A stretch of 48,119 nucleotides of DNA, filler included, from Catajapyx aquilonaris (Eukaryota): assembly GCA_000934665.2 (NCBI GenBank). It is 2 parts of 2 records of this genome, joined end to end, with 100 filler letters (N's around TTAATTAATTAA, not from the genome) between each part and the next. Parts side by side here need not be neighbours in the genome. Positions count along the whole stretch, not along the records: positions 1 to 23,980 come from JYFJ02005587.1; 1 more part is not named here. The stretch is one strand, 5' to 3'. The notes under the pieces are model-generated. The model saw only the letters and a program-made list of their open reading frames with translations, had not been told where the DNA came from and made no database searches. Every line of letters starts with the position of its first letter. The stretch's first letter is position 1. Both the position numbers and the translations under genes were made by a program. Of this stretch, positions 3,051 to 24,229 are shown one piece after another.

Positions 3051-3762
3051 ATTTGCAGAACACTAGTCGCACTTTCACCTGGCAGAAATCCTTTCCCCTT
3101 GCATACAGATAAGTTATCATGTTAAGATGGCTTATGTAGAAGTGGTATTGGCAGATTAGACCTTATGATACTGGGGACACCTCAATCACTTATTTCAAGT
3201 ATCAAAACAAGACAGAACCAGATTCCAGATTAGGCCTACTGTGAGTGCAACAAGAAAATATAACAATTCACATAGATTAGAATGCGAGGCACCGTTTTTA
3301 TGCCAATTTTTGCTGTGTACATGACAGAATTATGAGGAAGTTCGAATTGTTACACCAAGATGTGTTGCACTGCCTGCGTTAGGAGTATAGTTCTTGGCAG
3401 ATATATCTCTTGTCATGTTAGGAGCAAAAATAGACAATGATTCAAGACATGCAATAAAACTTTCCATAATTTGCCACAAAACACAACTTGGTAGTAATTG
3501 CAATATCTTGTCCTTGGATAGGTTCCAAGAGATGGTTTCAGAGGAACATCTTTTGTTGCCTTGACTTGCAAATAATTACCCAATTATTTTTTTTCTTCAG
3601 CTCTTACTCAATACGTTTCACATTATAATTCACATCCAGCCGCTTCTATATCTACACTAATTGCCCATTAAGTACGAAGTATAACTATTTTTACCCCCAC
3701 AATCGCATTTCTGATCTACAGCCTCCAGGCCCCATGTTGTTATTCACACTAGCTTTTATTAC

Positions 3763-3928: not shown

Positions 3929-5431
3929 CTGTAAAAAAATAAAGTGTCTGATTCATAATTCATTATGAATGGGGCAAAGCACTACGTTCGAAACCTTGAC
4001 AGTGCACCTGAGGAAGGGCAAATATGGGTGAAGGTCATAACCACATAAAAGTTTTTTTTTACACTATAAGTTGGCCTTGATGCCAATGATAATTGTTACG
4101 CAATTGGTCATGGAGGTATAAGCTCTAACCGGTTCTGCAGCATTGACTCTACTTACTCGCCTTCTTACAAAGTAATAGTTTAATATCGTTAGAAATACAA
4201 CTTAGGCCTGTTGAATGAATGCAAATTAATTGAAAAATCTCCAATTATGCAGATGTATTAACATACAGAGGTATTTTCTCTTGAGTTAATAGAACTGGCC
4301 CTACATATAATGCAAATTTCTCAATTATTGGCACATTTGATCTCCACAACTCTTAAAAATCTGCTGAACTGCACATTGCATGGTGCAGTGAAAATGTGCT
4401 CAATTATAGCCATTAATCTACCAGAAAAAAGTAGTTTTAAGACTTTCCCAGGATCATTATGCTAGTTGGTATCATATTCTCACCAACCACTTATTTTGGT
4501 AGCAAGCGTTCAAAACCTTATGACCTTGAGCCACATGCAGACATTCACTTAAAATTATGGATGCTGAAAAGAACTAGCAGTCCTTGATAATAATCAATAT
4601 GGCACTAGCCAAGTACTAACTAACATGAAAACCGTGGTCATCTGATTCACTCATATTGCGCACCAAAACTGGCTTGACTATCGAGTATGTGCCTATGCAA
4701 AAACCCACTGCATGCCTCATATGCAGAAGCACTGGTAATTAACCACACTTTCTCACACTGGTATCTTATTCCCTAATTGCCACGTTGCAATGAGGAAAAA
4801 ATACTCTGGGAATTCCAAACTGCCTGTTCAGTACAGAAAATATTGTGGCCTGCAATACATGTAGGTTTCACTGCATACAGTGTTTTTATGATACAAAGAA
4901 GAGGTGACATAGACAAAGTGACGAATAATTCACACCTGGTCTGTATTCAAACTCCAGATCAGACCTGGCACACGTTTAGGGTCTTTACCTTTCTGCCTGC
5001 CACTCGCGTTGTCTACAGGGGATAATAATCCATAATCCTTCCCTGGGCCCCCTTTTGGGCAGTGAAACTCCCTCCTGCAGCAATGATACCTATTGGTAGG
5101 TTTATCAAGCCACACTGTTCGAGTCAGGAAACTATAATAATCAGATCTTTCTCCCAGTTGGGAACCTTCGTGCAACATGTTTCAAGTGTCACAATTTGTT
5201 TCTACTTGCCAATACATAGTTGTTTTTTTTCTATTCACAGTCAGCACATCTGGTTGGAACAAGGCAGAAGCAAATGGATATCTGGCTGACAATTTCTTAT
5301 GCCATGGTTTCTTTAAATATTCTTCAAAAAATTATGGTTACCGTATCACTAATATCTAAATTTCCTCAATTCATTGGCAATATTCCTGATGCAGAAAAAA
5401 ATTAACTATCCTTCAAACTATAACTGCTCAC

Positions 5432-10400: not shown

Positions 10401-12687
10401 CTGTAATATAAAGGTGTGTCAAGGTCAGTTCTTGTTCTCCTCAACAATACTGGCCTTGGACTACCTGACGTTTCACCTCTTTTAGCAGCCCTTCAAATCC
10501 GTTTACTTTTACTTCTTGCAGCAGTCTCCCTGTCATTATCACCCTGCCATTTCCATTAACATTCTCATTATATGATAAAACTCTGAATCATGGAGGTAAG
10601 CGACTTATTAACCCTGTTACAGAAACATGCAAAGTTCTTAAATGTCAGACTGTCTGTCTCGCATGCCAGTCTGCATGCCATTTAATACCGTGCAAGTACC
10701 AAAATGACCAAAACCTGTCACATGAAAATAAATGAGATTCATTCATTTTCATTTTACATTTTTTCTTAAGCACAGGCACATCTTCAACTTGATGTTAATG
10801 GTTCCTTCATTAGCGTATGTTACTGTACAAGTGATAATTAATGAAGAACTGTCCTTATATAAGTAACTCATCATGACCTTCGCACCAACTCGCCACAATA
10901 AATCAGGTGTGAATGAATCCCCACGTGCTTGCAGCACATTATCATTATATCATCACATTATTCCAGTTTTTGTGCTGCCTAATGAATATAATTACGTATT
11001 GTAGCCACTACTTTTTATCAGATTGGGCAACATTATAACCACAAAAACCCATTCCATGGTCTGTGGCAATAATGCAATGAATGGCAATAAAGTGAATTGA
11101 GGAAACAGAAATGACACCTCAGCACTTTTATTTCTTATATTTTACCCTCAACAGTGCACTCATATGCAATCCTGAATCTCAAACATTGTTCAAAATAATG
11201 TACTTACTTCACTATGAACAACAATAATAAATGCTGATATATAAAACTGATGCAAGCATGTTCAATGCATGTTTTTTGTGTAACGCCTACAATAATAGAA
11301 TTTGATGAGTCACAGAATATCAAGTTCATTCAGGCTGAACTATGGCATAGATAATCTTTTGGTCTGGAGGAGCTCTGATACTAGCCAGCACTGACATCTA
11401 ACTATATTTATAAAGAATAGAAAAACACTGAGCAAAAGTCAAGAGCAATCAACTGACTGACATTCCCCTTAATTTCAAAGTGATCTTTCTGTATTTGATG
11501 CGTGCCATTCATTGGAAATGTCTTGTCAGATCTCACATATCAACTGTCATGACCATGTCTGTTGTTTTATTTAGTATATTCCAGCTGTTTTCTCACTCAT
11601 CCCTACTCTGCTATGGCTGAACTGAGAGCAGATATACAGTTTGTTCCAAATGAAATGCCAAAGAGGTTAGCAAAAAATTTTTTTTGCAATGAGCTGCTTT
11701 TTAAAAGTTATTTCGGAAGTTATTTCTCGACAAAAGTCACCAAAATTATTAGCTACTAATGACAGTCAATTGGATCATCCATTCAAGCTTAATAGTTACA
11801 ATGAATTTCCAACTGGGAATGACCCTTGGGAACTATCAAAATCTCAATGAGAACCAAAATTTTGCGTGCATGAAAAAATAAGAAACATTGTGAACTTTTA
11901 ATATTCCACACTTGTGGTCCAACCGTCAGAATTTGTATAATTTTTATCCCATATAGCACAACCAGTGACTATCCAGTGTGTATTATCTTAGTAACATTGG
12001 CACCTCACTGGAATTAGGGGATGATCCCTTATTGGAACAATGTACTTTTCCCCTTACACTTGTCTATTGACATTGTACATAACCCATACATAGTACTGTA
12101 CTGTGCCATGGCCACGATATGAGGTTACACATGTTACACGGCATGTACCAATATTATTTATTCAAGAAAGTATCAATAACTGTCATGGATTACAGTGAAG
12201 CTGAAAGGCCAGGGTGTACCCCTTCCAGTATATCAAAAACGCTGCATTTCTCCTTGTCATTTATCATCGTTATCAAGAATTAATAACAAAATGAAACACA
12301 CTGTTTTGATACACAATGAGCGGTGCAGCCAAGCCCCAGTCCGCATACTAGTATCCTCATCAACTATTCATCAACAGTGCCGTACACCAACTCAAAATCC
12401 ACCACAGCAGTCCCATCCCCTGCCAACAAATGCTGGCGGCCCAATGCAAATAATCTGAAATGACGGTCATTGACATGCCCTCCGTCCTGATTATCCCTCA
12501 TCCACCAACTGTAAACAACTGATAAGCCCTAATCAGAGAGACCCTGCTCCGAGCAGGCCGTCTGTCCATGCACATCACGACAGCTTAATTTTCACATGCG
12601 CCAATATTGTTGTCGTCACTACGGCAGCAGTCACAAGACAACAGTGGTGTGTTACCCTCACTTGATTGAAATGAGAGGCATATTTAC

Positions 12688-12834
12688 CTTGTGGTAGACA
12701 TCAAACTGCACGTTTTCAGGGAGCACCCTGAGGTCCCTCCTGACGTCGTTGAAGCAGCAGACGACGGCGGACACGGCCAGGGAGTAGAGGGAATCGGGCC
12801 GTGGTGCCTGGTCCTGGTGCTGATCCGACGCCAT
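12688..12834 (-). CDS. APPBP2: APPBP2 (amyloid protein-binding protein 2 / PAT1) coding exon 1
   Basis: ATG at 12834; MASDQHQDQAPRPDSLYSLAVSAVVCCFNDVRRDLRVLPENVQFDVYHK resembles the APPBP2 N-terminus (..P.TLY..AISAVV....RRD.R.LPEN.QFDVY.K); donor AAG|GTAAAT. Confidence 0.93.
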
Positions 12835-13169
12835 GTTTCCAGCACTGGGGGCCAGCCACGGGGCTGCGACGACACGGCCGTCACCCACAGACTACGGGCT
12901 GGTTGAGGCCGAACGACACCACCCAGCCGACAGGCAGGCGGACAGCCGGGGAACAGAAGAGCAACTCAGCAGTCAGCAGCAAGGCGAATCAGGCCCCGAA
13001 GGACGACCCCGTATTTTCAGCCTTCAAAACATGGAGGAGGAGGATATGTGTGGGTGGGGAGGGAGGTAGGGAGGGAGGGCGATCAAAAGAGTGGGTGGGG
13101 GGAGGGGGGAGAGGAGATAAACGTGGGTGGGAAGAGGNGGGGGGGGAAATCCATGGAAGGATACAATAA

Positions 13170-13700
13170 ATAAAAACAATTAACGACCATTTAACGTACT
13201 CACGACGTCGGGTTTTTAATTGACGTATTTGATGAAATAATCTGGAAGTACAGACGATGGAGCAGTACGCAGCAACAAGAGGCGGTCATTGGTGGAGGAG
13301 AAACGCCACTGCAGAATGGGCCAGTTAATCGCGCTTGTAAGTGAGTAGGAATACAGCGTGTAAATTCAGCAGCGATTATTTCAGGATTGAAATTAGCAAT
13401 AAGCAGAAATAGGCACATTTGCAGTGCTGTACAAACTTAGGCATAATAAGAAAACACTAGCGACCTCCGCTGCAGGATATTCTGAGATTGATGTAACAAA
13501 AAATTAGAGTTGGTGTTTAGCATGCTTGCAAGTCGTTGCAAGTACATGATAACATGTTGAGTACTGTAGATTGCTACCTAATACCAAGGAGGTTACTGCT
13601 ACAATTATAATAGCTATGTTATATACGGTTGCATCGTGCATCATCCGTCACAATCTGGCAACGTTGCTTCGGCAGAGCCGTTCGCCATATTGGATTCTTC
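13170..13700. promoter_or_regulatory. Probable bidirectional promoter between APPBP2 (-) and SPT6 (+)
   Basis: Genes diverge; CpG-rich segments on both sides (12700-13300, 13630-13910); YY1-type CGCCATATTGG at ~13683 and RFX-like CTGGCAAC at ~13655; exact TSSs not determinable. Confidence 0.55.
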
Positions 13701-13910
13701 GCGTAGGAAAAGCTTCGTTTCTACGCTGACAAGACGAGGAGGATCGACTTGCAGTACCTGCGCCCTTTTTATTCAGTTGGCTGCATCGACTGGACGGTTC
13801 TGTAGTGCAAGGAGTGGGTTCTCCTCGTCCCAGATAATTCGCCGGATGCTGGTAACGGCGCAGTAGAAGGGAAGGAACTCGCATTCCATCGGTTTGCCCC
13901 GGAAGAGGTG
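13660..13910 (+). other. SPT6: Probable non-coding first exon (5' UTR) of SPT6
   Basis: CpG-rich segment ending at donor TG|GTATGT (13911); the ATG-bearing exon has its own acceptor (TTTTTCCACTTCTGAAG, 16037), so an upstream exon is implied; start position approximate. Confidence 0.5.
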
Positions 13911-14162
13911 GTATGTTGTTTCTTCCGGTTGTATATTTTGAAACCCGTACATACTGCGTCGCTCCAGTCAGTCTTTAGTACGTACTTTGGTAAGCAGTAT
14001 AGATAAATTTAATTACAGTAAGGAATGTTACTCCATGGCTTTGAAACCCTTCTTTCTTGGTCTACTACTCCAGTCTTAGTTGGGACTTTTGAGTAAACTG
14101 TTTAAACCCCTGTGGATTGCGTTCCAATCTGGTTTTTACTTGCGCAATGTATGGCAAAGGAA

Positions 14163-14288
14163 GGATGACCCATGATGCTAATCACTGCGCAAATCTGAAG
14201 AGGCAGATGCAGGAAGCTCCATTTTAATATAAAAATGTTGAGTGCCCGTCTGCCTCACTGTTAACAATTTGTGAAGTCTGAGGCCACC
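14163..14288 (+). ncRNA. Intronic box C/D sno/scaRNA candidate, copy 1 (U4 snRNA-complementary guide)
   Basis: Variant box C ATGATGC 14172-14178, guide CACTGCGCAAA 14183-14193, D' CTGA 14195-14198, hairpin 14200-14256, box D CTGA 14278-14281, imperfect terminal stem; paralog at 18052-18176. Confidence 0.65.
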
Positions 14289-14691
14289 AGTATTTTATGC
14301 TGTTTCTGCAGCTCTTTGTCAACATTTGTGTAATTAAGGCTTTATTTTGCTTTTAATGTTTCTGACCAATTTTGCAAGCAATTCTGGATGAACAGGTTGG
14401 CATTGGTAATGTGGAAAGTGCATTTAAAATTCACTCGATCAGCTGCCAATGCTGCAGATGTGCTTATTAAGGTACGTTCTCACTGGGTGATGGACCAAAA
14501 TGGGACGAAAATATCTGCAGTTGCTTTGAATTTCTAGATGTATTTAAGAGGTTTTGTGTGTCATAAAATTGGTTTTTTAAACTACCTCAATAAGCAGAGC
14601 TGCAAGTTAAAGTAATACTTTAAAAGTCACATTTTTATGGAATAAACTAAAATGTCCACATGAAAGGCAGAAAAATGCCCCCTGTGAATAA

Positions 14692-14866
14692 GGGCCTGTT
14701 TCTACCGGCATAATTTTTGAGCACAAAAAGAAAGGCACAAAAATTGAGCGCAAAATCAAACAAACTTTATTATTATTTCTTTGTTACTTTATTATTAATC
14801 ACCTAGCAACAAGAAATTGTTCTGGCTTGCATTTTGTCCAGAACAAAAATTATGCTAGTGTAAACC
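14692..14866. mobile_element. Decayed PIF/Harbinger-like MITE
   Basis: GGGCCTGTTTCTACCGGCATAATTTTTG ... CAAAAATTATGCTAGTGTAAACC imperfect inverted ends; TSD unclear. Confidence 0.4.
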
Positions 14867-14887
14867 AAAGAGTTCTGCTCTAATATA

Positions 14888-15423
14888 CAGGGTGTTTCCT
14901 GTAACTCTGTAAAGACTTGCAGGGGTAGTAGAGGGGACCAAGCACGGACCAAGACAAGTATTTTTGACATAGGAACCCGTGTCCGGAAACGCCATCTAGA
15001 GGGGGTTCATAGACAAGGAACAGGTGAGCTCAGACGCGTCAGGTGGGCGGCGTTAGCAAGCGGACCGTTTAGTTGCTAGGTGGCGCGCAGATTGTACACA
15101 CCTTCGTAATTCGCAATAACCTGGCAACAACAGAGTTGTGTATTATCTGCGGTCTACATGATGCTGACTTTAGTTGTTAGGTGGCTCTGTTGTTGCCAAG
15201 TTATTGCGAATTACAAAGGTGTGTACAATCTGCGCGCCACCTAGCAACTAAACGGTCCGCTTGATAACGCCGCCCACCTGACGCGTCTGAGCTCACCTGT
15301 TCCTTGTCTATGAACCCCCTCTAGATGGCGTTTCCGGACACGGGTTCCTATGTCAAATATGTTTGTCTTGGTCCTCTCTATTACCCCTACAAGTTTGTCG
15401 GTTGAATTCAGAAACATCCTCTG
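14888..15423. mobile_element. Tc1/mariner-type foldback MITE (TA|CAGGGTG), ~250-bp inverted arms
   Basis: TA-flanked; arms ~14888-15135 and ~15185-15423 are near-identical reverse complements; same family recurs at 24081-24229. Confidence 0.9.
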
Positions 15424-16060
15424 TAGTACTGTATACCTAGAGAGAGTACTCGAGGTGAAATGTAAGGCAGGCAACAATGCAGGCAACAATATGGGCCTAG
15501 TAAAGATGGTGGATGCCTGACATTATTGGACTAATTGTCGTCCCAGTTGCTAGGCAACTGTCAGAATACAATATGGGCCTAGTAAATATGGCTGCTGCCT
15601 CAGCCTGTCTAATGGGGAAGGATAGGGATATGATAGGAGTGCTTCTTCTAGGTATATTATAGCAGAACTCTTTGGTGGAAACAGGCCTTAGGTTCTTTTC
15701 CATTTTTATATGTAACCTAGTCTATTGTATGCCTGAGTTTCTACGGCAGGACATGTGGGCCACACCTGTGCTGCCAAAAGTGAAAACACAGTAACTCCAT
15801 AGGCGAGCAATGAGACTTACTGTGTTTTCGCTTTTGGCGGCAGACCTGAAGCACTTAATAGCTCCTAAAAATTTAGAAATTAAGATAAAATGAGATTTGA
15901 CAAAAATATTTAATGCCATAATGATAATTGCCTTACAGTAATTGTAAGTGTGAATATCAAGATTAGAATATGAAGTTTTTGACTCGTGGGACCCACAAAT
16001 GTCACAATTTGATTTATTTATTTTTCCACTTCTGAAGGAACAGAATAGATCAAGGCAACC

Positions 16061-16099
16061 ATGGCTGACTTCATTGACTCAGAAGCAGAGGAAAGTGAT
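16061..16099 (+). CDS. SPT6: Transcription elongation factor SPT6 coding exon 1
   Basis: Kozak-like ACCATGG; MADFIDSEAEESD resembles the SPT6 N-terminus; donor GTAAGT. Confidence 0.93.
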
Positions 16100-16161
16100 G
16101 TAAGTTATTGCAAATAACTTGTATTCATGGCATTGTCTTAATTATATTTGCCTTATTGCAG

Positions 16162-16243
16162 GAGGAGGAGGAACTGAATGACACAGAAAGGAGGAAGTTG
16201 AAAAAAATTAGGGCAGTGCAGAGTGATGATGAAGAGGAAGAAG
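16162..16243 (+). CDS. SPT6: SPT6 coding exon 2
   Basis: EEEELNDTERRKLKKIRAVQSDDEEEE; TTGCAG acceptor, G|GTGAGC donor. Confidence 0.9.
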
Positions 16244-16640
16244 GTGAGCTTACAACTGAATTATAAACACAGTGAAAAAACCTGATCAAAGGCCATCTTG
16301 ACTTACAAATTTTTAATGTTATAGAACCTACCCTAACCTATCATTAAAAAATTGCACAAGTGTAGGGCTGGTGGAAAAAATATGTTGAAGGCGTAATCAG
16401 GGAAAGGGACTTGAGTGTATATTTTGCATAGAGTTGGATATGAGTTCTGGGATGTTTTTTATCATGGCCTACAGCAACACCCTCCAACATGTGATTTTGC
16501 TACTTTTTGTTCTTAAATTTAGTTTGCCTAATCACAAGGATAAATAAGATGCTGGTTTCTAAATAATGCATGGCTGGATGCCCAGGCAATTTGTAAAATT
16601 GTTAATAGAGGAGGATCATCATAAATATTATGGTGAAGTA

Positions 16641-16773
16641 CAGTTCTGGACATTAATGGTAGAGTACTGACTGCTGCATGAGCCGCCGCTGCTAACGAGC
16701 GCATCGAACCTCATCGAACTGAAGAGTAAGATCAGATTGCCCTGAGTGACGCTACCATTTATGTCCAGCACTG
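16641..16773. mobile_element. Short MITE with CAGTGCTGGACA-type TIR
   Basis: TA|CAGTTCTGGACATTAATGGTAG ... CTACCATTTATGTCCAGCACTG; terminus shared with the 22167-23841 element. Confidence 0.7.
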
Positions 16774-16918
16774 CACTCCAGTCCCTTTCTTCCACTTTTT
16801 TCATATTCATGCCTGCAATAAGAACTAGTGTGCCATAAAAGTGTGTTTGGTAGGTGACAAGTTACTGAACAACTAGTTTGAAATTTAAAGGCAATTGACT
16901 ATGTAAACTTGGTCGTTA

Positions 16919-17073
16919 CCCTGTAATGCCCCTTGGGTCATATCTGGCTCACCATTTAGTGCAATTTGGCACTTACAGGAAGTATAAAAATTGCAAAAGT
17001 TGCGAAAATTGCACTAAATGGTGTGCCAGATATGACCCAGTGGGCATTACTTAGATTAGTGGGCATTACAGGG
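16919..17073. mobile_element. piggyBac-like MITE
   Basis: CCCTGTAATGCCC...GGGCATTACAGGG|TTAA with long internal inverted repeat (GGGTCATATCTGGC..ACCATTTAGTGCAATTT); left TTAA degenerate (GTTA); small duplication of AGTGGGCATTAC in the right arm. Confidence 0.7.
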
Positions 17074-17130
17074 TTAAGCCATCTGTAATATATGTACAAA
17101 CTGGCCCTTGTCAGGTTTTTCTACCATATA

Positions 17131-18033
17131 CGAGGCGCATCCAGAAAGTAAGTTCGGTTTTTTTATTAGGAAAACCACAATGCACCCCTAGAATTTTTAT
17201 TTGCAAATCTGAAACCGACGACTCTACATTTTTTCAAAATAGTTTCCAGCCAAATTGGGGCATTTTTCATTGAGTTACACAATATTTTGTATGCCTATGT
17301 CATAGAAGTCTGCCGCCAGCCATTTCCGCGATCCCTGAACACTGGATTGCAACTCCTCGTCATGGTCAATTTTCTGCTTTGCAAGCCATTTCTCCCTGTC
17401 CATGGACAGGTGGTAATCGCGGCTCAAAATCCCAGGTGGTCAAGAAATTCTCACTTTGAATTGTTGCGGCAGGGTTCCAGCAAGCAAGGCAGTACGCAGA
17501 GGGGCATTGTCGCGTAAGAAAACACCACGAAACTCAATATACTGATGCATTTCTTGTGATTTACCATCCTTAACTTCTGTAATGTCTCACAATAAACCTT
17601 TGGGTTGAACAAACATAGCAGCATATTGAGTTTTAGGGTGTTTTCTTGCACGACAATGCCCCCTGCATACTACCTTGTTTACTGAAACCTTGCCGCAGCA
17701 ATTCAAGTGAGAATTTTTTGATCACCTGGGATTTAGAACTTAGCGATTACCACCTGTCCATGAACAGGGAGAAATGGCTTGGAAAGCAAGAGGTTGACCA
17801 TGACGAGGAGTTGCAATCCAGCGTTCAAGGATCGCGGAAATGGCTGGCGGCAGACTTCTATGACATAGGCATACAAAATATTGTGTAAATCAATGAAAAA
17901 TGCCCCAATTTGGCTGGAAACTATTCTGAAAAAAAGGAGGCGGTAGTCGATTTCAGATGTGTAAATAAAAATTCTGTGGGTGCATTGTGGTCTTTCTAAT
18001 AAATAACCGAACTTACTTTCTGGATGCGCCTCG
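17131..18033. mobile_element. Non-autonomous mariner made of two inverted copies of the transposase 3' half
   Basis: TA TSD; TIR CGAGGCGCATCCAGAAAGTAAGTTCGGTT at both ends; each arm carries decayed mariner C-terminal motifs (HDNA, DL..SDYHL, KWL, FY..GIQ.IV). Confidence 0.92.
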
Positions 18034-18051
18034 TATGTACTTGGAAGAGAA

Positions 18052-18176
18052 GGTGACCCATGATGATAATAACTGCGCAAAGATCAAGAGGCAAAGCGTG
18101 TGCAGCTCCATTTTAAAAATAAAATGTTGAGCACCAGCTTGCCTCAGTGTGGACTAATTGTGAAATCTGAGGCCCC
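18052..18176 (+). ncRNA. Intronic box C/D sno/scaRNA candidate, copy 2 (U4 snRNA-complementary guide)
   Basis: Box C ATGATGA 18060-18066, guide ACTGCGCAAAGAT 18072-18084, hairpin 18088-18145, box D CTGA 18167-18170, ~80 nt upstream of the 3' splice site at 18252. Confidence 0.7.
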
Positions 18177-18252
18177 AGTAATCTTCTGCTGGGTGTTTAT
18201 TAACTGTTCTCGACAAGCAGAAATTGACAGGATTTAAATTTCTTTTCACCAG

Positions 18253-18434
18253 ATGATGATGAAGTACTGAAAGATCTTATTGATGACAATCCGATCGAAG
18301 AAGACAGTGACAACGAATCCGTTGGGTCAAGAAAACGGAAGAAGAGTGATGATGATGATGACGATTTTGATGATCGCTTGGAAGATGAAGATTATGATTT
18401 AATTGAGGAGAACTTGGGAGTGAAAGTTCAGAGG
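18253..18434 (+). CDS. SPT6: SPT6 coding exon 3
   Basis: ..[34 protein letters not shown], conserved SPT6 acidic N-terminal motif; phases consistent. Confidence 0.95.
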
Positions 18435-19994: not shown

Positions 19995-20080
19995 GTATAG
20001 TTTAGGAGTTACCAGTGAATCCCTTGCTATAGGTCTTGGAAACTGGTCCACATCTAATGGAATTTTAATGAACATTTCAG

Positions 20081-20281
20081 GAGGGTGGGAGAGATTCCGA
20101 TTCTCGTAGCACGGATCGTGCACGAAAAGGTCCACAGATCATTGGAAAGATTAAAAAAGCACTGGACTTTATGCGTAACCAACACCTGGAGGTGCCCTTT
20201 ATTGCATTTTACAGGAAAGAATATGTCCAGCCAGAGATGAATATTAATGACCTATGGAAGGTGTATAAGTATGATGAGAAG
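20081..20281 (+). CDS. SPT6: SPT6 coding exon 8
   Basis: ..[52 protein letters not shown] (SPT6 HtH region). Confidence 0.97.
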
Positions 20282-20366
20282 GTTGGTACTCCTTATTTAC
20301 ATTCTTGAGGGTTGTATTTGAAATAGTGATGATATAAAAATATATGTAAAATTTCTTCTTTGTTAG

Positions 20367-21989: not shown

Positions 21990-22166
21990 GTGAGATATGC
22001 ATTTGAGTAAGTTAGGCTATTATTTCAAGTTGCTGCAACCAACAAGTTACATGCACACATTCCCAGGTATTTTGAGAGTCAGGGACATAAGCTTCCTTAC
22101 CAACTGGGAGAATATGTGATGTGTTGGGCTAATTTTCCAGTTCAGACCTGCAATTTCAAGCCTGTA

Positions 22167-23841
22167 CAGTGCTGGACACATTAGCCATCTCTGAATGTTT
22201 TTTTTTTTTTCCGTTGGTGACTGCGCGCGTTACCTGGCAACCCCGGCCGGCGGGCCAATTCAAACATCAGCATAAATGGAGAGTGCTTAGTGTTCTTTCC
22301 ATTGTTGCCATTGTTTACAAATTGAGTGAGTGACGCGGATGACCCAACGACGGGTCTCTGCCTGCTTACACAGTATCTGCAGCTGTGGGGATACACAGGA
22401 AAAAACAGGAAAATACTGCTGTTAGAAGCAATCCACTTTGGGAAAATTATCCTTGGACTCAAAGGCTATTTTCACACGAGACCACCATGGCAGGGCTGCC
22501 GCATAAATTAGGTGGCACTGCTTGTCGCAAGAAAAGTCACGTCTCGTGTGAAAGGCCTCATATCGTCGGCCGGCGATCAAAACCTCGTAACTCCATTTTG
22601 CGCGAAAATTGACTTACGTACCTCGTAAGTCCCTTTGCACAACTTTGCAACGGTGTACATGAATTCAACATCATCCTCATAAAGGTAAGGTTTACGTTAT
22701 GCTATACTGTAGGAATAATTGTCAGCATGAACAGAAAACATGATTTTACAAAATGTTTTTTGTCCCACCTGTAAAATTTGGTCTTGAGGAGTTACGAGGT
22801 TTTGATCGCCGGCCGACGATATGATTCAATGCAAACACGTGGCGGCACAGCCAGCTGGCAGAGGCTGGCAGCGCCGAAAGTCGCCCTGCCCGCCACCAGC
22901 ATTTCTGGCGGCGCATGGGCAGCGCTGCCAACCACCATGTGTGAAATGGCAGCGCGTCCATGGTGGCCTTGTGTGAAAATAGCCAAAGAAAGGTTTTCGT
23001 CCACAGCACACAAAATATATTCCACCCATGAGGAGAGGGTGTCAATTAAGATCAGGGGTGTGCTAATTGAAAGTGCGTCAACTGACCGATTCTTTCGGTT
23101 TTTGTCTCTTTTCCGCGTAATTCGACCACCGCTAAGACGAATGGAGACCATGCCCTGTATGTCAGAACCCCATCTGTCTCGTAATTTGTCCCCATAAGAC
23201 GTCATATTTCAAAATGGCCTCCTCATATACGAGTACGTGTCAATTGCGTCATATTACCGCCAGGAAAATCATCCTGGTGCGAATATGACGCGAATGACAC
23301 GATGTACAGGACTAACATGACATCACGTACAGGGGTTGGACAGGGGTTGTACAGGGGTTGGACACAATAATAGGTGAGACTGACGCGGTGTCTTGACATA
23401 CGGGGGGCATGGTCTCCATTCGTCTTAGAGGTGTCGACTTACGAGGGAAACGACACAAAAACCGAAAGAATCGGTCAGTTGACGCACTTCCAATTAGTCC
23501 ACCCCTCTCCTATGCCGGATGGAATTTCGTGGATGGAAACCTTTCTTTGAGTGCAGCAGGGAACATTTTCCCAAGGTGGCTTGCTTCTAACATCATTATT
23601 TTACCGTTTTTTCCTGCATATCCCTTGCTACTGATGTGTAAGCAGGCAGAGACCCGTCCGTCACTGGGTCGTCCGCGTCACTCACTTGATTTGTAAACAG
23701 TGGCAACAATGGAAAGAACTCTTAAGCACTCACCATATGCTGATGTTTGAATTGGCCCTCCGGCCGGGGTTGCCAAGTAATGCTCGCCGTCGCCGATGGG
23801 AAAAAAAAAACTTTCAAAGACGGATAATGTGTCCAGCACTG
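22167..23841. mobile_element. Long-TIR (foldback) non-autonomous element, TA-flanked, CAGTGCTGGACA ends
   Basis: Left arm 22167-22463 plus 22988-~23190 pairs with right arm ~23380-23841; TA at both sides; no transposase ORF. Confidence 0.88.
22464..22984. mobile_element. PIF/Harbinger-like MITE nested in the left arm of the foldback element
   Basis: TIR GGCTATTTTCACAC / GTGTGAAAATAGCC, 3-bp TSD AAA, long internal inverted arms; removing it restores CTCAAAGAAAGGTTT, complementary to the right arm. Confidence 0.85.
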
Positions 23842-23843
23842 TA

Positions 23844-23980
23844 CAGTGCTGGACAAATTAGCCGTCGCTGAATGTTTTTTTTCCGTCCGCGTCGGCGCTG
23901 CGTTACCTGGCAACCCTGTCCGGCGGGCCAATTCAAACATCAGCCCATGGAGAGCGCTTCCATTGTTGCCACTGTTTACA
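23844..23980. mobile_element. Start of a second copy of the CAGTGCTGGACA element, cut by the gap
   Basis: Directly abuts the first copy across a single TA; aligns to 22167-22320. Confidence 0.85.
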
Positions 23981-24080
23981 NNNNNNNNNNNNNNNNNNNN
24001 NNNNNNNNNNNNNNNNNNNNNNNNTTAATTAATTAANNNNNNNNNNNNNNNNNNNNNNNNNNNNNNNNNNNNNNNNNNNN
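23981..24080. other. Artificial assembly spacer (44 N + TTAATTAATTAA + 44 N)
   Basis: Exactly 100 bp and symmetric; the core gives stop codons in all six frames. Confidence 0.97.
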
Positions 24081-24229
24081 CTCGCGTGACGCGTCTGAGC
24101 GCACCCGTTCCTTGTCTATGAACCCCCTCTAGATGGCGTTTCCGGACACGGGTTCCTATGTCAAAAATACTTGTCTCGGTCCCCTCTATTACCCCTGAAA
24201 GTCTTTGCAGAGTTACAATAAACACCCTG
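24081..24229. mobile_element. Right arm of a CAGGGTG-family MITE (same family as 14888-15423)
   Basis: Aligns to ~15275-15423; ends AAACACCCTG|TA. Confidence 0.9.

Follow-up and report, generated by a model that had tools for sequence, protein, structure and literature searches.

What is encoded by the two similar segments that lie near the start of the SPT6 gene of Catajapyx aquilonaris, each running from a box C to a box D, and what might the product act on? The segments were found in a stretch of 48,119 nucleotides (nt) from assembly GCA_000934665.2, here called the window, along which all positions below are counted. A sequence-only reading of the window had taken them for a duplicated intronic box C/D RNA with a guide antisense to the 5′ end of U4 small nuclear RNA (snRNA), and had proposed an invertebrate family of such RNAs hosted by SPT6. 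The anatomy of the two units, their duplication, the pattern of their conservation, the intron position of copy 2 and the presence of a homologue in a second phylum can be established directly. The homologue, here called L001, is a third member found in a metagenome contig, in a mollusc-like gene. On this basis, we put at roughly 0.6 the probability that the window units are an intron-encoded pair of box C/D guides for 2′-O-methylation near G7/C8 of U4, as their predicted pairing suggests.

Both copies, announced at 14163-14288 and 18052-18176, are indeed present, and were recovered by BLASTN and by MAFFT. A BLASTN comparison of the copy regions with 500 nt of flank on each side gave a single significant match, 14160-14302 against 18049-18191 (143 nt, 78.6% identity, E-value 4.8e-27); nothing else in these regions was significant, and the next match had an E-value of 0.16. 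In the MAFFT alignment of 14160-14292 (copy 1) with 18048-18180 (copy 2), both on the plus strand, the mean column identity is 88%. The limits first given to the similarity, just before box C and just after box D, were roughly placed and too narrow, as it begins about 10 nt ahead of box C and continues for about 20 nt beyond box D (to 14302/18191). From both window copies a covariance model, R1, was built; it scores 160.8 bits on copy 1 and 161.2 bits on copy 2, values that are high by construction. A run of R1 over the window with its filters off revealed no further copy, the next best score (14.2 bits) coming from the hairpin on the reverse strand. The string ACTGCGCAAA, which follows box C, occurs twice in the 48119 bases, both times on the plus strand (14184 and 18072), against 0.03 occurrences expected, and a count of two was reached in 0 of 100 shuffles.

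The two copies have not diverged evenly. In the BLASTN alignment the terminal stem and box C are identical at 9 of 10 positions, the guide core at 10 of 10 and the TCTGAGG at the end at 7 of 7, and the less conserved regions are the D′ region (3/6), the hairpin (43/58) and the second guide region (14/20). Boxes and guide together are identical at 26 of 27 positions despite an overall divergence of 21%. The units are probably paralogues that originated by duplication inside SPT6.

Each unit reads, in order, CCC, box C, a 5-nt spacer, ACTGCGCAAA, 1 nt, a 4-nt D′ position, an A and a hairpin of 57-58 nt; after the hairpin come about 21 nt, a T, CTGA and GG. Box C is the canonical ATGATGA in copy 2 (18060-18066, plus strand), and L001 has the same AUGAUGA. 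In copy 1 it is the variant ATGATGC that had been reported (14172-14178, plus strand, CCC before it), in which the final A is a C and six of the seven positions of the consensus RUGAUGA are kept. Box D is CUGA in all three members, and lies at 14278-14281 in copy 1 and at 18167-18170 in copy 2 (both plus strand). The GG after it pairs with the CC before box C, and this CC/GG terminal stem is invariant in the three members. By hand count the stem is short in the window copies, with an A.C mismatch after two pairs, and has six pairs, two of them G.U, in L001. A D′ box, CTGA, is found in copy 1 (14195-14198, plus strand), 1 nt past the antisense element; at this position L001 has TTTA and copy 2 has ATCA, and the description of copy 2 as lacking a canonical D′ box was correct.

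The second guide region, that of box D, occupies 14257-14277 (plus strand) in copy 1. It is the poorly matched 14/20 region of the copy comparison and is not conserved in L001, and a hand search gave no convincing target for it. As a side observation, part of the region (14265-14277 and 18156-18166) resembles the U6 segment AAAUUCGUGAAG in the sense direction, at 10 of 11 positions in copy 1 (compared by hand with the U6 sequence of PMC13253345). The window RNA thus has two U6-like stretches, the guide element discussed below being the other, in the order in which they stand in U6; this may be chance, and is not shared by L001.

The sequence-only reading had left out a conserved hairpin, which follows the D′ position and precedes the second guide region. 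Folds and a pair-conservation test place it at 14200-14256 in copy 1, where it runs from the D′ position to a degenerate C′ position, and at 18088-18145 in copy 2 (both plus strand). Its core in copy 1 reads CUCCA...UGUUGAG, with the TGAG at 14239-14242 (18128-18131 in copy 2); the UGAG is conserved in all three members and is predicted at a bulge or stem, not in the loop. In the three-member alignment the hairpin has 23 pairs, 95.7% of the cells are paired and seven pairs are changed on both sides, figures that come from three rows fitted to the model and give descriptive support, not a probability. The pairing level was matched by 0 of 500 shuffles, and slid registers are only 35-45% paired. 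The differences between the copies within the hairpin are largely compensatory. A kink-turn inside the hairpin was ruled out by eye, there being no GA on the 5′ strand.

The hairpin also folds on the minus strand, where R1 gives 14.2 and 10 bits. It could be argued from this that there is no RNA gene here, and that the segments are a duplicated intronic regulatory element or a minus-strand hairpin such as a microRNA (miRNA)-like precursor. We find this hardly credible. At five of the hairpin pairs some member has a G.U, and the opposite strand would have A.C at these positions, so an RNA from the plus strand is favoured. Conservation is highest outside the hairpin, in box C, box D and the terminal stem, and neither copy has an Rfam miRNA match. 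Both window copies are very probably real box C/D RNA genes.

The host gene and the sense orientation of the copies were read correctly from the start. SPT6 lies on the plus strand, as supported by two Pfam domains: SPT6_acidic in the exon after copy 2 (E-value 4.4e-10, 40.2 bits, cut-off 24.4) and the HTH_44 domain of SPT6 at 20072-20305 (plus strand, E-value 1.3e-12). The named hits of the HTH_44 exon are all insects, the best at 93%, among the matches listed, in line with an arthropod source. The exon with the start codon is 16038-16099 (plus strand; ATG at 16061, MADFIDSEAEESD), with its acceptor AG at 16036-16037 and its donor GT at 16100. Coding exon 2 is 16162-16243 (plus strand), with a phase-1 donor AAG/GTGAGC, and coding exon 3, which carries the acidic N-terminal region, is 18253-18434 (plus strand; acceptor ttcttttcaccag). 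A start of exon 3 at 18253 joins G to AT and restores the reading frame; a start at 18231 was ruled out, as it breaks the frame.

The claim that the copies lie in different SPT6 introns holds directly for copy 2, which is within the intron 16244-18252, and only indirectly for copy 1, which precedes the ATG exon and is separated by about 1.75 kb from that exon's acceptor at 16036-16037. Copy 1 is probably in an intron of the 5′ untranslated region (UTR) of SPT6, because a CpG-rich, promoter-like zone (12500-14000, no strand assigned, from CpG and GC profiles) and a strong donor, CTT/GTAAGT at 13340, lie upstream of it and the ATG exon has an acceptor of its own. The observed/expected ratio of CpG is 0.65-1.16 in 12500-14000, and most of the 300-nt bins that flank it have 0.10-0.45. 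The possibility of an exon some 80 nt past copy 1 was also considered and was dropped on reading the sequence; the AG at 14310-14311 is just about 30 nt after box D.

Intronic box C/D RNAs typically have the sense orientation and are followed by the 3′ splice site at about 65-85 nt, a distance that is not absolute, and Hirose and Steitz reportedly found in 2001 that a similar distance from box D to the exon is optimal for their processing. From box D of copy 2 it is 82 nt to exon 3 and 57 nt to a branch-point-like TTGAC (A at 18227), and from that of L001 it is 77 nt to its exon; both distances to the exon fall inside the typical range.

The copies could be relics or passengers, i.e., a duplicated segment derived from a small nucleolar RNA (snoRNA) that is now silent or functionless, or a pair of which only one copy is functional. 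The variant box C of copy 1 and the roughly 1.75 kb that separate this copy from the acceptor at 16037 would fit this, as would the lack of a D′ box in copy 2 and the large foldback repeats inserted in the same introns. Such decay is quite unlikely, however, given that boxes and guide are still identical at 26 of 27 positions after 21% divergence, that the hairpin changes are compensatory, and that copy 2 keeps its 82-nt distance despite an 850-nt palindromic repeat that ends 42 nt upstream of it.

If the copies are functional box C/D RNAs, what would they guide? The 5′ end of human U4, printed in the methods of PMC13253345, is AGCUUUGCGCAGUGG, and all pairing given here was counted by hand against it. 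The antisense element of copy 1, TCACTGCGCAAA (14182-14193, plus strand), pairs with U4 nt 4-15 through 11 Watson-Crick pairs and one G.U, in keeping with the 11 base pairs first claimed for it. The element of copy 2, ACTGCGCAAAGAT (18072-18084, plus strand), makes 11 pairs with U4 nt 3-13; the earlier figure of 13 pairs is reached only under the assumption that U4 of this species starts AUC. L001 makes nine pairs, with U4 nt 4-12. The invariant element after box C, of core CUGCGCAAA, covers U4 nt 4-12 and takes the forms CACUGCGCAA in copy 1, ACUGCGCAA in copy 2 and CUGCGCAA in L001, and the window copies lengthen the pairing on different sides of this core, to 11-12 pairs. In copy 1 the 11-12 pairs to human U4 are followed by U and then by CUGA, at the position where copy 2 and L001 have ATCA and TTTA. 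The fifth nucleotide upstream of the D′ position is, in all three members, a C that pairs with U4 G7 and not with C8. The sequence-only reading had noted for copy 1 that the +5 rule points at G7; this holds, and applies likewise to copy 2 and L001. The site falls on G7 instead of C8 because the members have one A more than the vertebrate guide as given in the sequence-only reading.

The likeness to a vertebrate guide can be followed in Rfam. In the whole window no Rfam family matched at its gathering threshold, and in 13900-18400 nothing fell on either copy at E-values up to 10; the Rfam search that had been proposed as a check thus leaves both copies below the gathering score of every family. 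One model, RF00283, is nonetheless informative by its content. It describes a small Cajal-body RNA (scaRNA) of box C/D type over 83 positions, and its consensus, which begins UggcCgAUGAUGACguGACCACUGCGCAA and reads AUGAUGACguGACCACUGCGCAA, carries CCACUGCGCAA after box C. The earlier reading had identified the antisense element with that of a vertebrate scaRNA guide, and the RF00283 consensus does carry the same element. The label of RF00283 in the copy of Rfam searched, SCARNA18, was treated with caution, and we relied on the consensus instead. According to the supplementary table of PMC6984369, U91, which belongs to scaRNA17, is the 83-nt C/D guide of U4-C8, and scaRNA18 is of the H/ACA type. 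Table 1 of PMC7960923 assigns human U4 Cm8 to scaRNA17 and lists the U4 Cm8 guide at 83 nt.

It might be objected that the copies are genuine C/D guides whose 5′ element targets another RNA containing UUUGCGCAG, e.g., a ribosomal RNA (rRNA), and that the match to U4 is incidental. The conserved core in L001 is just 9 nt long and the +5 rule misses the known U4 site, and both points favour the objection. It is countered by a curated model of a vertebrate scaRNA, RF00283, in which box C is followed by the same element, by the length of the vertebrate U4-C8 guide, which is that of RF00283, 83 nt (PMC7960923 and PMC6984369), and by the window copies, whose U4 pairing grows to 11-12 pairs, each copy adding to the core on a different side. 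We regard another target as unlikely.

Members of the family outside the window were sought in metagenome contigs with the pattern CCATGATG, 5-9 nt, CTGCGCAAA, 65-95 nt, CTGAGG. Six matches were obtained, one of which is L001; the other five are on contigs of 53-61% G+C and have no further features, and the same pattern had 0 matches in 596 gigabases (Gb) of prokaryotic genomes. The contig of L001 is 4748 nt long with 46% G+C. The unit is on its plus strand, sense to its host, and the intron that holds it (3152-3375, 224 nt) separates two U2SURP/SR140 exons; the named proteins that best match the host gene come from bivalves and other molluscs, at 87% or less. As a side observation, this contig ends in a long G homopolymer (4600-4748), probably an artefact of assembly or sequencing.

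The box C of L001, AUGAUGA, is followed after 6 nt by CUGCGCAAA. The spacing from guide to hairpin (AAA, 5 nt, AGAG) is the same in all three members, the basal stem of the L001 hairpin covaries completely, and its middle keeps CUCCA...UGUcUGAG. In its second guide region L001 shows no relation to the window copies. Run with the filters off, R1 gives L001 a score of 39 bits (E-value 2.5e-6). Of the five other pattern matches, used as controls, one scored 10.6 bits (E-value 3.3) and four gave nothing at E-values up to 10; because these controls fail, the score of L001 is not explained by the 23 bases that the pattern forces. The homology of L001 rests on structure, spacing and context, because its raw identity is barely above that of the controls. 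The proposal of an invertebrate family thus gains a third member in another phylum, and hosting by SPT6 has to be given up as a trait of the family, since the mollusc-like member sits in U2SURP. As far as sequence can tell, C/D RNAs bearing this 5′ element form a family with members in an arthropod and in a mollusc-like animal, in different host genes. The evidence suggests a family that is old but ordinary.

Several points weigh against the units being guides for the 5′ end of U4. The site predicted by the +5 rule is G7, not the known C8, L001 has just nine contiguous pairs with U4, and a 9-12-nt match of the element to rRNA may exist. Box C of copy 1 is a variant, and of the three members only one has the canonical D′ box and all have a degenerate C′. 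On reading the sequence, no acceptor could be supported near copy 1. Narrow Rfam scans of the copies gave sub-threshold C/D matches only: RF00283 reached 11.4 bits on copy 2 (gathering score 40, E-value 7.9), over a span of only box C and guide, and had no match to copy 1 or L001 at E-values up to 10. The identity of L001 to copy 2 outside the 23 forced bases is 58/108, against 48-55 in the controls, and was equalled by 28 of 500 shuffles; raw identity was dropped as a test of homology, being uninformative at 58/108 against 48-55.

For the units as U4 guides, it is from what is known of such RNAs that we infer their expression, the binding of proteins, U4 as target in this species and the nucleotide modified; these RNAs are released from introns by lariat debranching and then trimming after splicing. 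The lariat of the host intron would be debranched and trimmed in this way, and the core proteins of the class, fibrillarin, NOP56, NOP58 and SNU13, would bind the kink-turn of box C and box D, closed by the CC/GG stem. The product would be an RNA of about 115-125 nt. Its element after box C would pair with the 5′ end of U4, on the strand otherwise given to U6 in stem II, and fibrillarin at the D′ position would 2′-O-methylate U4. The +5 rule predicts G7 as the nucleotide modified; C8, the vertebrate site, would be the target if the register were +6 or D′ were read one nucleotide earlier. The hairpin would place the D′ position beside the degenerate C′ (UGUnnA), and a Cajal-body (CAB-like) signal may lie in its UGAG. 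Counted by hand, the window copies agree with the fly consensus cgaGUUAnUg at 5-6 of 10 positions and L001 at 7 of 10, and a GU-repeat stem is present in none of the three RNAs. For comparison, the available part of PMC4041459 gives as Cajal-body signals ugAG in H/ACA scaRNAs and cgaGUUAnUg in fly C/D scaRNAs, and describes G.U/U.G wobble stems in this role in vertebrate intronic C/D scaRNAs.

The state of the D′ and C′ boxes raises the question of whether methylation would be the outcome at all. A C/D ribonucleoprotein (RNP) might bind the 5′ end of U4 without methylating it, as a mimic of the U6 strand of stem II and chaperone of free U4, or as a regulatory RNP. This idea draws on the non-canonical D′ of two of the three members and the degenerate C′ of all of them, and on the CUGCGCAA that guide and U6 have in common. 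Degenerate C′ and D′ boxes are, however, common in working eukaryotic guides, and a D′ site that measures would require just such an exactly kept spacing between guide and hairpin, so that the idea appears improbable to us. A precedent for it comes from PMC5612246, the available part of which describes eight U6 bases in the 5′ loop of human mgU4-8 and proposes regulatory RNPs.

A broader and, in our view, doubtful proposal, with little chance of being correct, is that of an ancient, pan-bilaterian family of box C/D RNPs that apply a U6-like element to the stem-II strand of U4 and whose main role is not methylation. Its protostome members would be intronic in genes for transcription and splicing (SPT6, U2SURP), and a working D′ would have been lost in most members, with the exactly spaced, UGAG-bearing hairpin kept. 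If this were true, the RNP would hold free U4 or hand it over before U4/U6 annealing, and the supply of spliceosome parts would be tied to the expression of the host gene.

If instead the units guide methylation of U4, as we favour, they would be candidate guides for a site at the U4 5′ end in arthropods and molluscs. Either a guide for the U4 5′ end would predate the split of protostomes and deuterostomes, or there would have been convergence on the same 9-nt element, and the family would be a further case of a snoRNA changing host genes. The use of the finding would lie in annotation and in snoRNA evolution, and the view of how such RNAs work would be unchanged. To our knowledge, guides for modification of the U4 5′ end have been described only in vertebrates. 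In the literature covered, which is partial so that absence is weak evidence, no guide for the 5′ end of U4 is described from an invertebrate, nor is any small guide RNA in introns of SPT6 or U2SURP. The mouse mirtron in Supt6h (PMC3482243) is unrelated to the window RNAs.

The surroundings of the copies hold further features. A minus-strand open reading frame at 12658-12834 (MASDQHQDQ..., no Pfam match) stands head-to-head with SPT6 over the CpG-rich zone, which is probably a bidirectional promoter between the two. In the putative intron of copy 1, 14800-14888 (plus strand) has a weak Rfam match to the Drosophila scaRNA PsiU2-38.40.42 (23 against 88 bits, E-value 0.7). A palindromic foldback element, similar to a miniature inverted-repeat transposable element, occupies 17159-18006 and ends 42 nt upstream of copy 2; its arms are 17224-17420 and 17743-17939 (197 nt, 94% complementary), and 17159-17222 and 17943-18006. 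Two more inverted repeats in the same introns, at 14946-15374 (190-nt arms, 97%) and 16923-17050 (45-nt arms, 93%), form hairpins with sub-threshold Rfam miRNA matches (MIR5070, 47 against 100 bits; mir-992, 35 against 79) and are most likely transposon hairpins. Dispersed direct repeats of 92-96% identity are also found in the SPT6 introns (15279-15394 with 24087-24202, and 22162-22271 with 23839-23944) and adjoin assembly gaps, the N runs at 23981-24024 and 24037-24080.

Among known systems, Drosophila mgU4-65 and other fly C/D scaRNAs share with the window RNAs an arthropod source, an origin from introns and a role in guiding on Sm-class snRNAs, predicted here (PMC3884663, available part). 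The target of mgU4-65 is A65 of U4, unlike the 5′ end predicted for the window RNAs, and fly C/D scaRNAs carry cgaGUUAnUg (available part of PMC4041459), of which the window copies keep only UGAG. In the available part of PMC3884663, the known scaRNAs include mgU4-65 as the sole U4 guide of the fly, at least seven Drosophila snRNA modifications are without a guide, and a fly guide for the U4 5′ end is not mentioned. SNORD94/U94 in PRPF8 is, as predicted for the window RNAs, a C/D guide for a spliceosomal RNA, placed one guide per intron in a gene of the transcription or splicing machinery; it differs in its target, U6 C62, and in its host. U6 snRNA itself, the partner of U4 in stem II, has CUGCGCAA in its sequence and binds the U4 nucleotides that the window guide is predicted to pair with (sequences from PMC13253345). 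As a polymerase III snRNA without C/D boxes it is otherwise unlike the window RNAs, and the resemblance is due to the common pairing partner, not to homology.

The closest system is U91/mgU4-8, the 3′ domain of SCARNA17 (mgU12-22/U4-8), which is, like the window RNAs, a box C/D RNA with (C)ACUGCGCAA a few nucleotides after box C, i.e., in the 5′ (D′) guide. The human RNA is a domain of a tandem, capped RNA polymerase II gene, described as independent in the available part of PMC4041459, whereas the window RNAs are intronic single domains, and the U12-G22 guide of mgU12-22/U4-8 is not present in them. They are about 125 nt long against 83 for U91/mgU4-8, because of the internal hairpin of 57-58 nt, and have an extra A before D′, which moves the predicted +5 site to G7. 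By analogy, the window pair most likely works like U91/mgU4-8 yet stands outside that Rfam family by score. What is new relative to U91/mgU4-8, as judged from sequence, is the intronic single domain, the large conserved internal hairpin and the shifted register of the predicted site.

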